64,000 bases of DNA from Nanohaloarchaea archaeon B1-Br10_U2g1 (GTDB lineage Archaea; Nanohalarchaeota; Nanosalinia; Nanosalinales; Nanosalinaceae). The position numbers were made by a program, and so were the translations under genes. Positions within the stretch are counted from its first letter, which is position 1. Every line of letters begins with the position of its first letter. The stretch is from the NCBI GenBank assembly GCA_001563875.1, contig LKMN01000001.1:32001-96000 (forward strand), read 5' to 3'. Shown here piece after piece: positions 39,403 to 44,301 of the stretch. The notes under the pieces are model-generated. The model searched no databases. It saw only the letters and a list, made by a program, of their open reading frames with translations, and was not told the DNA's origin.

Positions 39403-41187
39403 CTATTCTTCGTAGTACTCATCTCTCTTCCTCTGTTCCTTATCTTTCTGGCTGTCTGGCTTGTTCGCTCTTGGTCTGCCTGTCTCTGGGTCTTTCCGGA
39501 AGGTGACACCCACTTCTTTCAGGAAATCATTTACTGCTTCACCTATCTTCATTGGCTTGGTCGATTTCCCGTGTTCTCCGGACTCACCTTTGAATACTAT
39601 CCCTCTATCTGCCATATAGTCAAGCATTAGCAGATCGTGGTCAATAATCATCAATGGTTTCTCTGTTTTTCTTGCATAGTTTTTCAACATCTTGCCAAGT
39701 TTTACACGTGATTCAACATCCAAGTATGCTGAAGGCTCATCCAAGAGATACAGGTCCGCGTCTTTAGCTAGACAGATCGCTATTCCTACTTTCTGTAGTT
39801 CTCCACCTGAAAGTTCGTTAAGGTTTTTCTCGTATAGTTTTTCTAGTTCCAAAGGTTTTGCTATACGGTTCTCAAACCTTTTGTTATCAAGGGAGGTATG
39901 CTGTGATACTACATTCGCTACAGTTGTGTTAGAGGACTCTAGGTACTGTGGTTTGTACGAGATTGATAGGTCTAGAGCTTCTCCATTGTCCGGGCTTATT
40001 GCTCCGGCCAACATCTTTGCGAAAACCGTTTTTCCTAGCCCGTTTTCTCCAAAGATTGCAAGAATCTCTTCTTCATGTATACTGCCGGGAGCAGTCTCAA
40101 GTTCGAACTCGTTTTCTCCAAAGTCTTTCCTCATCTCTGGGAACTCGGCAACAGTTTCTTTCCTCTCAACTTGTGATCTTTTGGAACGGTCAAACTTTAT
40201 CTCGTCGGCTCTGAAACGGACGTTGTGGGTTGGAAGGTAGCCTTCTAAGTAACGGTTTACTCCTTCCTTACTTGACAGAGAGTCGGACACCATCCCGTAG
40301 CTGGCTTGATCTCCGTAGAAGATATGTATGTTGTCTGAGATCAGGTCCAGTGTAGCCAGATCGTGTTCTACAGCCATAACACTTTTCTTCTCTCCAAGCT
40401 TCCGAATTTCTCTACCGGTCTTAAGTCTCTGTTTAACGTCTAGGAAGGACGACGACTCGTCGAACATGTAGAGATCTGCGTCTTTAAGTATGGTCGAGGC
40501 TATTGCGACCCGCTGTAGTTCTCCGCCTGAGAGCTGTTCGAGCTTTCTATCCAGTAAATGAGCTATGTCAAGTTTTTCTGCAACTTCGTTGAGCTGTTCT
40601 TCATCGATATTTTCTAAAAGTTCTTGGACCTTACCGCTGTATACATCAGGTAGCTTTTCAACCTGTTGTGGCTTATAAGCCGATTTTACGTCTTCTTCAA
40701 GTTTCTCAAAATGTGTCTGTAGCCCTGTACCCCTGAACTCTTTAGTTACCTCTTCAAGTTTAGGAGGGTCTTCGTAATCTCCAAGGTTGGGTAGTATGTC
40801 GCCACTAAGTATCTTAAGTGAAACAGATTTTCCTATACCGTTTTTACCTATCATCCCTACTACTCGGCCACTGTCTGGCACAGGCAAGCCATAAAGTCTG
40901 AAACTGTTTTCGCCGAACTGATGGATTTTCTCCCCTTTTTCGTGAGGGAGCTGTATCATCTTTATAGCGTCATCGTAGGGATACTTGTTAATAGCCATCT
41001 TATGAGCTTCCATCACGTCTTCATCATCTATATGTAGCTCTCCTTCCTCTGTGAGGTAGAAACCTCCTTCTTTCCCCGCTCTATTTAAAGGATCAAAGTT
41101 GATTACGGTCTCTCTAGCTAAATCAGGCTCTATCTGTTCCTGATCGACTACTACAATAAATTTTTTCGAGTTTTTGTCAGTAGACAT
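39403..41187 (-). CDS. rli: Ribosome recycling factor ABCE1/RLI lacking Fe-S cysteines
   Basis: Twin ABC domains (GKNGIGKS, GENGLGKT, LSGGELQ x2), FRLYGLP, TFRKDPETGRPRANK. Confidence 0.95.
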   Translation of the reverse strand: MSTDKNSKKFIVVVDQEQIEPDLARETVINFDPLNRAGKEGGFYLTEEGELHIDDEDVMEAHKMAINKYPYDDAIKMIQLPHEKGEKIHQFGENSFRLYGLPVPDSGRVVGMIGKNGIGKSVSLKILSGDILPNLGDYEDPPKLEEVTKEFRGTGLQTHFEKLEEDVKSAYKPQQVEKLPDVYSGKVQELLENIDEEQLNEVAEKLDIAHLLDRKLEQLSGGELQRVAIASTILKDADLYMFDESSSFLDVKQRLKTGREIRKLGEKKSVMAVEHDLATLDLISDNIHIFYGDQASYGMVSDSLSSKEGVNRYLEGYLPTHNVRFRADEIKFDRSKRSQVERKETVAEFPEMRKDFGENEFELETAPGSIHEEEILAIFGENGLGKTVFAKMLAGAISPDNGEALDLSISYKPQYLESSNTTVANVVSQHTSLDNKRFENRIAKPLELEKLYEKNLNELSGGELQKVGIAICLAKDADLYLLDEPSAYLDVESRVKLGKMLKNYARKTEKPLMIIDHDLLMLDYMADRGIVFKGESGEHGKSTKPMKIGEAVNDFLKEVGVTFRKDPETGRPRANKPDSQKDKEQRKRDEYYEE

Positions 41188-41276
41188 ATTTAGAGGACGT
41201 GTAAGAAAGATTAATTAAACCATTTGAAGGATTTGGTTGGTAAGAAAGTTATAATGAAATAAAGGAAAGAAGGTTT

Positions 41277-41780
41277 TTACTCAAAGGCGAGCTGGTATTT
41301 CTCTCCTGTTACTTCGTCGATGATCTCTTCGAACTCTCCGACGGATAGGTTGATTTTTCCTTCGTAGTCGTCGTCTACAACGATCTTCTTACTCTGTCCT
41401 TCAGGTGAGAATACTGTGTTGACGGACTCTACTTCTGCCGGTGAGAGAAGTCCTTTAATGGTCTCTATATCTTCTGGAGCCTTCTCTACCACTCTTATTG
41501 ATTTATCGACCTGGTCTGCTATCTTCTTGACAATCTCTCCACTTCTGCCGACTACTTTAGCGCCGTCACCTTCCTCTGTAATGATTACGATGACGTTATC
41601 CATGTCGAAGATTTTAAGAATTTCTGAGTCTCTGAGAGATGCGTGTTCTTTGCTCAGATCTTGGAGTATACGAGATACCTCTACATCTGTCTCTGTTATC
41701 TCGCCATTTTCCAGTTTATCCTCGCACCCGCTACAGAGCACATCACTCTTTAGACATACATTACATATTGGAGCCTTCAT
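41277..41780 (-). CDS. NusA-like KH protein with N-terminal Zn finger
   Basis: PICNVC..LCSGC, KH loop VVGRSG. Confidence 0.8.
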   Translation of the reverse strand: MKAPICNVCLKSDVLCSGCEDKLENGEITETDVEVSRILQDLSKEHASLRDSEILKIFDMDNVIVIITEEGDGAKVVGRSGEIVKKIADQVDKSIRVVEKAPEDIETIKGLLSPAEVESVNTVFSPEGQSKKIVVDDDYEGKINLSVGEFEEIIDEVTGEKYQLAFE

Positions 41781-41874
41781 ACAACAGTTTGGCACTGTCA
41801 AGAATTAAATAGTTGAGGAGAGAGATCTTCCTTTCTCCAAGCTTTGCTCAAAGTCTACTTCTAACCTGTTGTAG

Positions 41875-42384
41875 CTAAAAATCTGTCTTTCTGTAAGTCA
41901 TGCTCACAATGTCGTACAATGATGCGGCAGTTAACGCTGCCAACCCGTAGAAAAGGAAATAGACGTTTACAGAATAAAGTATAAACCCTATAGAGAGCAT
42001 AACTAGTCGAGCCTCATGACCTATAACCGGTTGAACCGTCTCTCTCAACTCCTTAATGAAGCCGTTTCTAACAGTGTAAGTCATGAGAACTGCTGCTATA
42101 GATAAGGCTTTGAGGTAAGGAGGTATTATAGGTGAGAGAACTGCTCCAAAAATAAGGATTGATTCATAGAATGGAGGTAGTAAAACAAGCATTATACGCG
42201 TGTTTGATGTTTTACCAGTCTTCCTAGATTCTTTGAAACATAGACGGGATGAAAAGAGGACTCCGATAACAAGAAGCCCGCTCAGAGCCGAAGTATGTCT
42301 GCCAGGATGGTTTAACATCAGAGCTGAAAATATAGATAAAACCAGTGTCAAAACAGCATAGAGATGTAATCGGTTGTAATTCAC
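41875..42384 (-). CDS. Membrane protein (possibly degenerate CDP-alcohol phosphotransferase fold)
   Basis: Five to six TM segments; no DG-x-AR catalytic motif. Confidence 0.6.
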   Translation of the reverse strand: MNYNRLHLYAVLTLVLSIFSALMLNHPGRHTSALSGLLVIGVLFSSRLCFKESRKTGKTSNTRIMLVLLPPFYESILIFGAVLSPIIPPYLKALSIAAVLMTYTVRNGFIKELRETVQPVIGHEARLVMLSIGFILYSVNVYFLFYGLAALTAASLYDIVSMTYRKTDF

Positions 42385-42426
42385 GTGTTCAATTCTTTAG
42401 AACCAAAGTTTTACCGTTTTCGGTGC

Positions 42427-42448
42427 AGAGAAAAATAAAAAGAAAATA
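42427..42448 (-). terminator. U-rich terminator of ftsZ
   Basis: Minus strand TATTTTCTTTTTATTTTTCT directly after long stem. Confidence 0.6.
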
Positions 42449-42560
42449 CAGACCTCCGTTAAGGGGGGGAGGGGAGTGTTCTTTGAAGACCGACGGGGTT
42501 TAATGTTTTCCATCGGCCTCCAAGGGGACGGAGGTCTGAGGGGTATTAAAGGGGGAAATA
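42449..42560 (-). ncRNA. Structured C-rich ftsZ 3' element
   Basis: 11 bp outer stem CAGACCTCCGT/ACGGAGGTCTG, 14 bp inner stem with three G-U pairs on minus strand, unpaired C tracts. Confidence 0.6.
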
Positions 42561-42573
42561 TAAATTGTGAATA

Positions 42574-43635
42574 TTATTTCATAACCTCGAGACCGAGATC
42601 GTTTACGTCGCTTACCTCGGCTTCTTGTTCTTCTTCAACTTCTCCAAGCACGTAAGGAGATTTTACGCCGGTTATAATCGATATTACCTGAAGTTTGCCT
42701 TCCAGTTCTTCTCTAACTCTTGCGCCCCAGATTACTTGTGCTTGAGGGTCAAGGTTGTTTTGAACTGTTTGGCCTACTGCGTTGATTTCATTCAGTGTTA
42801 GGTCTTGTCCGCCCGCTACGTGTAGGAGGGCTCCGTTTGCACCGTCGAACTCTACGTCGAGCAGAGGGTTTGATAGTGCTTCATGGATTGCTTCTTCTCC
42901 TTTGTTGTTTGTGTCGCTTTCTCCGTATCCTACTACTGCGACGCCTCCTTCGTTCATGATTGCTTTGACGTCTGCGTAATCTAGGTTGACCAGTGAAGGT
43001 TTGCTGATTGTTTCTGTTACTCCTTTGATCATGGTTGTGATCAGTTCATCTGCAACTCCGAATGCTTGGTCTAGCGGCATATCTCCAGCGATATCGAGTA
43101 GTTTGTCGTTTTCGATTACGATTGCTGTGTCTACGTGCTGTCTTAGTTTGTATAGCCCTTCTTCTGCTTTGCTCATTCTTGCGCCTTCTATTTCGAAAGG
43201 CATGGTTACTGTTCCGATTACGATACAGTCTTCTTTTTTAGCGATTTCTGCTAGAACTGGTGTAACTCCTGTTCCTGTTCCTCCTCCTAGTCCGCATGTC
43301 AGGAAGACCATGTCTGCGTCTTTGAACAGGTTTCTTAGCTCTGCACGGTTTTCTTCTGCTGCTCGTGCTCCTTTTTCTGGATGTCCTCCTGCGCCAAGTC
43401 CTTTTGTCAGGTCTCGTCCTACTAGGATTTTTCTGTCTGCTGAGGACATTTCTAGGTGCTGTTTATCTGTGTTGATTACAACTGTCTCTGCACCTTCTAC
43501 ATCTTTCTTTTGGATACGTGTGACTTGGTTGTTGCCTGCGCCTCCGGCACCGACTACCAAGATTTTAGCATCTTTTACGTCGTCCAGATTTTGAACGTCT
43601 TTTTCCGACTTCGTATTATTGATTATTGATTCCAT
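42574..43635 (-). CDS. ftsZ: Cell division protein FtsZ (FtsZ2-like)
   Basis: GAGGAGNN, NTDKQHL, GGGTGTG, NLDYAD. Confidence 0.97.
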   Translation of the reverse strand: MESIINNTKSEKDVQNLDDVKDAKILVVGAGGAGNNQVTRIQKKDVEGAETVVINTDKQHLEMSSADRKILVGRDLTKGLGAGGHPEKGARAAEENRAELRNLFKDADMVFLTCGLGGGTGTGVTPVLAEIAKKEDCIVIGTVTMPFEIEGARMSKAEEGLYKLRQHVDTAIVIENDKLLDIAGDMPLDQAFGVADELITTMIKGVTETISKPSLVNLDYADVKAIMNEGGVAVVGYGESDTNNKGEEAIHEALSNPLLDVEFDGANGALLHVAGGQDLTLNEINAVGQTVQNNLDPQAQVIWGARVREELEGKLQVISIITGVKSPYVLGEVEEEQEAEVSDVNDLGLEVMK

Positions 43636-43685
43636 TTGAACACCACGGCATCAGTATGCCTAACTTTTTTAAAGCGGCATATCTA

Positions 43686-43842
43686 ATTCTACCTTAGAAT
43701 AAGTCAAATTCAAGCCCAACTTGAATGCCCAAATGTGATTTCGGATTCAACGCCCAAATCGAATCCGGTTCGATCATACTCGCGCCCAAACGAGTGTTGA
43801 TCAGTAGTCTCGAGTTCGTGGCCCAACACGAACACAAGATTA
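43686..43842 (-). ncRNA. Array of UUGGGC-loop hairpins upstream of ftsZ (5' leader or sRNA)
   Basis: Five TTGGGC motifs; four cap stems of unrelated sequence; G-U pairs valid only on minus strand. Confidence 0.7.
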
Positions 43843-43884: not shown

Positions 43885-44022
43885 GTCTTACTTCGTACAA
43901 TCCAAGCTGTTCAATGTCTTTGAACAGTTACTGTTCATAACCGTTCATAGAACCCATATTTTTGCACTATGCTGTTTCCACTTATGGTTACAAAAAGCTT
44001 TATTACACCAAACATTCTTAGG

Positions 44023-44301
44023 ATGGTAGAAAAGACTGAGGTAAAAAAGGTTTCGGAAAACGCACGTATCAACCTGTCTGAAGAAGAGACAGAAAAGTTC
44101 TCAAAAGAGTTTGAAACTATTCTTGAAGTATTCAATAAACTTGAAGAGATAGATACAGAGAACGTAGAGCCGGCATTCCATCCTATAGACGTAGAACCGG
44201 AGAAAAGAGAAGACAACGAAGAAGAAACTCTAACTGAAGAGGAAGTCTTCCAAAACACTGAAAATGAAGAAGAAGGATGGTTTAAAGGCCCTAGCGCATA
44301 A
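44023..44301 (+). CDS. gatC: Amidotransferase subunit GatC
   Basis: ARINLSEEE, IDTENVEP, REDN, GWFKGP. Confidence 0.92.
   Translation: MVEKTEVKKVSENARINLSEEETEKFSKEFETILEVFNKLEEIDTENVEPAFHPIDVEPEKREDNEEETLTEEEVFQNTENEEEGWFKGPSA

Follow-up and report, generated by a model that had tools for sequence, protein, structure and literature searches.

An array of UUGGGC-loop hairpins conserved upstream of ftsZ across the Nanohaloarchaea, a candidate multivalent mRNA leader

Why should a single hexamer, UUGGGC, be displayed repeatedly at the tips of hairpins whose stems have nothing in common, directly upstream of the cell division gene ftsZ of an archaeon? The question is raised by a stretch of 64,000 nt from Nanohaloarchaea archaeon B1-Br10_U2g1 (assembly GCA_001563875.1, contig LKMN01000001.1, positions 32,001 to 96,000 of the forward strand; hereafter the window), in which an initial annotation, made from the letters alone, had noticed such an array on the ftsZ strand. 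We know of very few cis-regulatory RNAs in Archaea and of none for cell division. By combining folding, covariation analysis, genome-wide motif scans and a comparison across a library of 70 species of the phylum, all belonging to one order, we found the array to be a phylum-wide, strongly covarying and ftsZ-tied RNA structure of a kind not previously catalogued.

Five UUGGGC motifs are present within 113 nt (43714-43826) on the minus strand, which is also the ftsZ strand, their plus-strand complement GCCCAA starting at 43714, 43727, 43752, 43784 and 43821, and the gaps between successive motifs measure 7-31 nt. Four of the five cap hairpins with mutually unrelated stems (H1 to H4, Table 1). 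The initial annotation had read these positions and the listed stems (GTTCGTG, ACTCGT, CGGATTCGAT and ATTCAAG in DNA letters) correctly from the sequence, and its fifth copy, assigned to a bulge or linker, was indeed found unpaired between H3 and H4, in agreement with its description of identical loops on unrelated stems. One to three additional copies of the motif, often unpaired, lie 3' of H3 in relatives, and hairpin H4 is also present in three other genomes (G011, G025 and G073). A pairing of the fourth motif of the source genome (as GGCAU) with AUGCC copies near the Shine-Dalgarno-like element, which appears in the minimum-free-energy fold, was dropped as it is, by eye, unconserved in relatives.

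In the minus-strand RNA, H1, H2 and H3 are part of both the minimum-free-energy and the centroid structure, and the fold is better than expected by chance (z = -3.15, none of 200 shuffles being as good). The plus strand folds as well (z = -4.72) and, as both strands fold better than shuffles, folding energy alone cannot assign the strand; this assignment comes from the G·U pairs and the comparative data. Pairs were counted in an alignment of 32 sequences fitted to the covariance model (A3), comprising 23 pairs and 706 stem cells. Of these cells, 96.2% are paired, compared to 77.3% in column shuffles and 18-43% when the partners are slid by 1-3 columns, and in 18 of the 23 pairs both sides have changed. 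Such changes affect all seven aligned pairs of H1, with up to four pair types per column (G-C, A-U, C-G and U-A), eight of the nine aligned pairs of H3 and three of the seven pairs of H2, which is the hairpin with the highest sequence conservation and is closed by U·G (23 sequences) or by U-A (five sequences). RNAalifold gives the same three helices, and the hairpins were also detected genome by genome in an alignment-free manner. G·U pairs, summed from the pair types, occupy 55 of the 706 aligned stem cells and would become A·C mismatches on the opposite strand, indicating that the structure belongs to the ftsZ-sense RNA, as had been proposed from the source sequence on the ground that its G·U pairs fit this strand only. 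Taken as a whole, the array is almost certainly a conserved structured RNA.

Absence from relatives, which the initial annotation had named as a refuting condition, does not apply, the element being found across the phylum. A strict pattern, in which three UUGGGC motifs are spaced by 10-40 nt, was present in 29 of 61 sampled relatives, compared to 3 of 61 for a reversed-pattern control, and in all 30 loci matching it (from 29 genomes) ftsZ follows directly downstream on the motif strand. Upstream, gatC is present in 28 of these loci and gave no match in the other two; since the array keeps ftsZ though the upstream gene differs, the element stays with ftsZ rather than with its neighbour. A relaxed pattern (three times TGGGM) was rejected as non-specific, the control matching equally often. 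A covariance model (R1) built on H1, H2 and H3 yielded 39 matches in 38 of the 70 genomes, each adjoining the same ftsZ orthologue. In one genome (G035), two contigs (C63 and C12) both carry the leader region and the 5' part of ftsZ, for which duplication, strain heterogeneity or an assembly artefact are possible explanations.

The ftsZ upstream regions of the genomes missed by R1 hold like arrays with a different loop. The upstream regions examined number 65, as G003, G028, G046, G050 and G063 yielded no ftsZ orthologue locus that could be used; one or more hairpins with a GGG-containing loop occur in 64 of these regions and two or more in 62. The mean is 3.43 per region, while shuffled sequences give 0.49 and the antisense strand 0.11. 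The region that scored zero (G040) nevertheless has three hairpins with UUGGCG loops, and the two that scored one (G068 and G070) hold others with bulged stems, which are missed by the ungapped finder. The array is absent from the second FtsZ paralogue (49% identical) in four genomes. R1 matched none of 38 genomes of another archaeal phylum, which is weak evidence, and none of the 80 loci listed by a metagenome scan with the strict pattern matched R1. Among the sequences caught by the pattern, a brine metagenome contig (L274:980-1200) carries a tandem repeat with no relation to the array, the units of which measure about 30-45 nt and all include CCTTGGGCC. A nanohaloarchaeal ftsZ (88% identical) with a CGGGCA-type leader is located on a contig (L130, JBLGBK010000009.1) that is filed under a Colwellia polaris metagenome-assembled genome and is probably mis-binned.

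Within the source genome, the array stands apart not by the presence of the hexamer but by its clustering and context. GCCCAA/UUGGGC has 12 matches in the window and 86 in the complete 709,831-bp genome, counted on both strands, five of which are in the array in either case, and the array is the sole site with two same-strand copies at most 80 nt apart. Stems of at least 6 bp flank only 4 of the 86 instances, all in the array (7, 6, 10 and 7 bp), the others having at most 4 bp; a genome scan for further UUGGGC hairpins, which the initial annotation had suggested, thus returns, at this stem length, the four of the array only. The 86 occurrences compare to about 240 expected from base composition, and the ratio of observed occurrences to a fourth-order Markov expectation is 1.00. 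A specific avoidance of the hexamer was therefore rejected: its rarity follows from base composition, which does not explain the clustering and the hairpin context. Fourteen other single hairpins with a TGGGC loop were found in the source genome, 12 of them inside open reading frames (ORFs).

Between lineages, the loops change in concert. UUGGGC is found in every hairpin of most of family f1 and of parts of families f3 and f4, and 89 tallied loops are exactly TTGGGC in DNA letters. All hairpins of genera g2, g18 and g13 carry GUGGGA or UUGGGA instead, genus g19 has CGGGCA and UGGGCA, family f2 UGGGCG and family f5 UUGGCG, and loops are mixed in genera g7, g20 and g21; the phylum-wide loop core is Y-GGG-C/A. 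The same substitution across all hairpins of one genome, on stems that differ, is what is expected if a single co-changing partner reads them all, and these concerted switches point to one co-evolving trans-acting partner. As to how often A-type loops arose, the backbone of the FtsZ tree is unresolved and automatic labels misfiled two A-type genomes with bulged hairpin stems (L146 and L148), so that the tree supports nothing finer than one or two origins.

Upstream of H1 lies a predicted promoter (P1) with the TATA box TTTATAAA, which all 23 of 23 family-f1 sequences carry unchanged; from this box to the first loop motif the distance is 44-66 nt, in most cases 49-55 nt. In the source genome, 38 nt separate this box from H1, roughly the distance of about 30 nt given by the initial annotation. 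As the box is invariant at a near-constant distance from H1, the array is very probably transcribed from P1. Archaeal terminators are oligo-T tracts, and between the array and the ftsZ start codon 30 family-f1 leaders hold no run of at least five T, compared to 8.2 expected from shuffles, and five runs of at least four T, compared to 29.6 expected. This absence argues that the transcript runs on into ftsZ and, taken with the strict linkage of array and gene, favours a 5' leader acting in cis over a free, CsrB-like sponge RNA; we consider it probable that the array is a leader rather than a separate small RNA (sRNA).

Between the array and ftsZ, positions 43655-43699 hold a second conserved module, consisting of a box (TTCTAAGGTAGAATTA) and a hairpin around TTTAAAAAGG, which is conserved more strongly than the array stems and is recognisable across families. 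The box, given as UUCUAAGGUAGAAUUA in Table 1, is near-invariant in family f1; 91% of its cells are paired and its variation is one-sided only. In hairpin P6, the TTAAAAA of the loop is invariant in 23 of 23 family-f1 sequences and the stem has moderate support, with 79.7% of cells paired, both-side changes in four of seven pairs and G·U pairs on the sense strand. In other families, differing stems flank the same A-rich motif, with a mean stem of 5.55 bp compared to 4.22 bp for shuffled flanks (n = 60). The module may serve either at the DNA level, as a second promoter and its operator, or as RNA, and the sense-strand G·U pairs of P6, along with the different stems in other families, suggest that the P6 stretch is part of an RNA. 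Closest to ftsZ, the GUGGUG element may act as a Shine-Dalgarno element.

Table 1. Positions, in window coordinates, of the ftsZ gene and of the elements at its 5' side
Feature	Position	Strand	Description
TATA box of promoter P1	43872..43879	-	TTTATAAA, preceded by AAAC; predicted start ~43848, from the usual archaeal TATA-to-start spacing
Hairpin H1	43808..43839	-	core 43814-43833, GUUCGUG / UUGGGC (43821-43826) / CACGAAC; outer helix UCUUG...CGAGA
Hairpin H2	43771..43803	-	core 43778-43795, ACUCGU / UUGGGC (43784-43789) / GCGAGU; outer helix UGAUCA...UGAUCG
Hairpin H3	43742..43767	-	DNA CGGATTCGAT/TTGGGC/GTTGAATCCG; RNA CGGAUUCGAU / UUGGGC (43752-43757) / GUUGAAUCCG; two G·U pairs
Fourth UUGGGC motif	43727..43732	-	outside stable hairpins; flanking stem just 2 bp
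Hairpin H4	43708..43726	-	AUUCAAG / UUGGG (43715-43719) / CUUGAAU; C at 43714 paired
Conserved box	43684..43699	-	UUCUAAGGUAGAAUUA; small inverted repeat UUCUA/UAGAA; RNA hairpin or DNA operator
Hairpin P6	43655..43681	-	UAUGCC / GCUUUAAAAAAGUUA / GGCAUA; loop contains second TATA-like box (43665-43673), possible promoter P2
Shine-Dalgarno-like element	43641..43646	-	GUGGUG, 5 nt upstream of the ftsZ start codon; 16S rRNA of relatives ends in ...GGATCACCTCCA
ftsZ	42574..43635	-	353 aa; Pfam Tubulin and FtsZ_C domains; NCBIfam TIGR00065 ftsZ, 396 bits

From these data, we slightly favour the reading that the array is the 5' part of a structured ftsZ mRNA leader of about 210 nt, which serves as a multivalent docking platform for one trans-acting factor. 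Transcription would start about 25 nt past the TATA box of P1 and proceed through H1 to H4 and then through the conserved module that follows them, to reach ftsZ. Each hairpin would present the same short loop motif, UUGGGC in this genome, on a stem that would be a scaffold only, free to vary as long as it remains paired. Three to six identical loops could then dock one factor, for which a sequence-specific RNA-binding protein, dimeric or oligomeric, is the most likely candidate. Translation of ftsZ, the stability of its mRNA or the elongation of the transcript would then depend on the occupancy of this factor. To the narrower question of whether a protein reads the loops at all, we would give even chances.

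Several points weigh against this proposal. The transcription start, the read-through and transcription itself are what we infer from the sequence, alignment A3 was fitted to the model structure and hence favours pairing, and the genomes are related, so that the counts overstate independent support. The second TATA-like box, TTTAAAAAGG, is invariant and separated from the AUG by 29-80 nt; ftsZ could in reality be transcribed from this box, the array then being a separate transcript. No further multi-site target was found in the source genome, which would leave a dedicated regulator with a regulon of one. Of the candidate binders, a KH protein or a reader of the tRNA-Pro anticodon loop, none is supported yet. 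The KH candidate is a protein with a Zn-ribbon and a NusA-like KH domain (PF13184; 41277-41801), encoded two genes downstream of ftsZ, which scores 141.8 bits against NF005013, below the cut-off of 175. The order ftsZ, small membrane protein, KH protein and RLI ATPase (39403-43635, minus strand) is found in 18 of 18 family-f1 loci, the membrane protein being present in 13; in neither of the two f3/f4 loci checked does the KH protein lie downstream of ftsZ. Moreover, its GXXG loop ignores the loop type, genus g18 with its UGGGA loops keeping the GRSG of UUGGGC genomes. Among 30 aligned KH orthologues no residue follows C-type as opposed to A-type loops, a result that neither supports nor refutes the candidate.

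The same evidence bears on what else the array could be. If TTTAAAAAGG were the promoter of ftsZ itself (P2), the array could be a stand-alone sRNA of about 150-200 nt, transcribed from P1, which would sequester the loop-binding factor in trans in the manner of CsrB. None of the 23 family-f1 sequences departs from either TATA-like box and the spacing of P2 to the AUG is plausible for a promoter; we nevertheless judge this unlikely, since no oligo-T terminator separates the array from ftsZ, the array was never seen apart from ftsZ, the stems flanking P2 covary and use G·U pairs as if they were themselves transcribed, and CsrA (Pfam PF02599) was found in none of the 70 phylum genomes by a search that, as a control, matched E. 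coli, B. subtilis and T. maritima. At the DNA level, the repeats might be transcription factor sites or cruciforms, an idea to which the divergent promoter region lends some colour as it also holds DNA-type TGAACAG repeats, as does the binding of CdrS to DNA upstream of ftsZ1 reported for Haloferax (10.1101/2021.05.11.443588). A DNA element would hardly explain stems that vary while still pairing, G·U cells that work on one strand only, a constant motif orientation relative to ftsZ and a location past the TATA box, within the predicted transcript, and it is, in our opinion, extremely improbable.

The remaining alternatives accept an RNA and differ in what the loops do. A protein-free device, in which the loop GGG runs form an inter-loop RNA G-quadruplex or tertiary fold and gate ftsZ in a K+- or ligand-dependent, riboswitch-like manner, would suit the high internal K+ that these organisms may maintain and the facts that GGG is the core of the loop variants, that 62 of 65 upstream regions hold at least four GGG runs and that the five GGG runs of the leader in the source genome are the five loop motifs. 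This device is improbable in view of two genomes with just three GGG runs (G013 and G068) and one with none (G040, UUGGCG); in addition, the U's before and the C or A after GGG are conserved as strongly as the G's although a quadruplex needs neither, and the motif gaps exceed the loops of at most 7 nt that are usual in quadruplexes. The loops might instead mimic the anticodon loop of tRNA-Pro and be bound by, for instance, prolyl-tRNA synthetase or the m1G37 methyltransferase, which would couple division to the translational status by analogy with the thrS operator. In the source genome, the anticodon loop of tRNA-Pro(UGG) reads UUUGGGA; G35 and G36 are identity elements of tRNA-Pro, GG is the invariant part of the loops, and in other genomes 7-nt loops in which U precedes a proline anticodon are seen as CUUGGGA (G013), GUGGGAC and UUGGGAC (g18, g2) and CUGGGCA (f3). 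These matches carry little statistical weight as nearly any U-NNN-purine loop fits some tRNA; the loops of the source genome count 6 rather than 7 nt and have C in place of A38 of the tRNA, CGGGCA of g19 has no U before the triplet and UUGGCG of G040 breaks GGG, so that we regard mimicry of tRNA-Pro as quite improbable. Finally, six identical and accessible loop nucleotides would be well suited for kissing interactions with a GCCCAA-bearing RNA in trans, be it an sRNA, a tRNA or an rRNA, or else with a complementary part of the ftsZ mRNA, and the D-loop region of tRNA-Asp does contain GCCCA. Such pairing is very improbable: the genome holds no second cluster of the motif or its complement, 16S GCCCAA occurs in just one of five complete relatives, 23S GCCCAA (position 104, in three of four extracted sequences) is unchanged in genomes with UGGGA loops, and the ftsZ transcription unit of 20 genomes has no conserved GCCCAA or UCCCA.

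How does the array relate to known systems? Searched at the gathering score, Rfam recognised only two tRNAs in the whole window, and in a 501-nt region with E up to 10 it gave two chance matches to plant-virus pseudoknots (best E = 2.8), in line with the statement of the initial annotation that no known family was recognised. In titles and abstracts of the literature on UUGGGC, on nanohaloarchaeal ftsZ or structured RNA and on post-transcriptional control of archaeal ftsZ1, no account of the element was found. The likeness to CsrB/RsmZ that the initial annotation had drawn holds for the architecture, as hairpins with unrelated stems show one short G-rich loop motif, accompanied by unpaired copies, and form a multivalent platform. 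It does not extend to membership of the Csr/Rsm system: the loops are UUGGGC (UUGGG in H4) instead of GGA or A(N)GGA, the array is archaeal and lacks both an Rfam match and a CsrA partner, and it is tied to one gene, without an oligo-T terminator, and probably is a cis-acting mRNA leader.

A second parallel is the transferrin-receptor mRNA, which carries an array of five iron-responsive elements (IREs) in its 3' untranslated region (UTR), each with a CAGUGN hexaloop and a bulged C in the 5' stem. Here too, identical hexaloops on different stems are repeated in the UTR of one mRNA, and IREs are read by one protein; the nanohaloarchaeal array differs by its UUGGGC loop, by the lack of a conserved stem bulge and of an Rfam match, by its occurrence in Archaea and by its location in a 5' leader rather than a 3' UTR. 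With the E. coli thrS operator, ribosomal-protein leaders and archaeal L7Ae k-turn 5' UTRs, the array would share a structured 5' leader that is recognised by a protein, as is proposed here. Those feedback leaders mimic an RNA to which the protein is known to bind (tRNA, rRNA or k-turn); comparison of the array with rRNA and tRNA established no such mimicry, and 3-6 identical sites are unusually many compared to them. UUGGGC also occurs at about position 504 of 16S rRNA, in a conserved AUUGGGC-UAAAG stretch present in three of five complete relatives. In the source assembly (96.75% complete) no 16S or 23S rRNA gene was found and ARAGORN reported 27 tRNAs only.

In phage lambda, the promoter-proximal RNA hairpins of nut/boxB load factors onto RNA polymerase. 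The array hairpins likewise lie in the first ~150 nt of the predicted transcript and a NusA-like KH gene is part of the same cluster, but there is no sequence similarity with nut/boxB, and any influence of the array on elongation is purely conjectural. That an archaeal ftsZ gene can have a regulator dedicated to it has a precedent in Haloferax volcanii, where CdrS is reported to exert transcriptional control by binding DNA upstream of ftsZ1 (10.1101/2021.05.11.443588). CdrS acts on DNA upstream of the promoter, in contrast to the array, which is an RNA structure downstream of it.

Better candidates for a CdrS-like site than the array are found on the other side of P1. Between the promoters of gatC and ftsZ, positions 43907-43948 contain (A/T)TGAAC(A/G)G four times, with both orientations represented, and most family-f1 relatives have, by eye, a similar set of 3-5 copies there, likewise upstream of TTTATAAA; these TGAACAG repeats probably are transcription factor binding sites. 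Divergent from ftsZ, the plus strand encodes gatC, a metallophosphoesterase gene and gatA. The gatC ORF spans 43969-44301 (plus strand), and GatC alignments of relatives mostly begin at residue 16-19, which means that translation probably starts at the ATG near 44023, leaving about 387 nt between the two genes.

What would such a leader mean for the nanohaloarchaea? The element is phylum-wide in tiny, host-dependent archaea and tied to one essential gene, with clean covariation and a simple anatomy, and its lineage-specific loop switches are a natural experiment, both for finding the binder by co-evolution and for testing its specificity with swapped loops. Should the loops fold among themselves in high K+ by means of their GGG, the array would represent an RNA switch of an unusual, ion-dependent type; a protein binder would open a route to how nanohaloarchaea time their division. 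That the Nanohaloarchaea control ftsZ after transcription start, through a phylum-wide leader of 3-6 hairpins read by an RNA-binding factor that has co-evolved with the loops, is a tentative proposal, to which we give slightly less than an even chance. If true, it would be, as far as we know, the first Csr- or IRE-type multivalent hairpin-array regulator described in Archaea, and the leader could tie division to an external or host-derived signal in these host-dependent cells.

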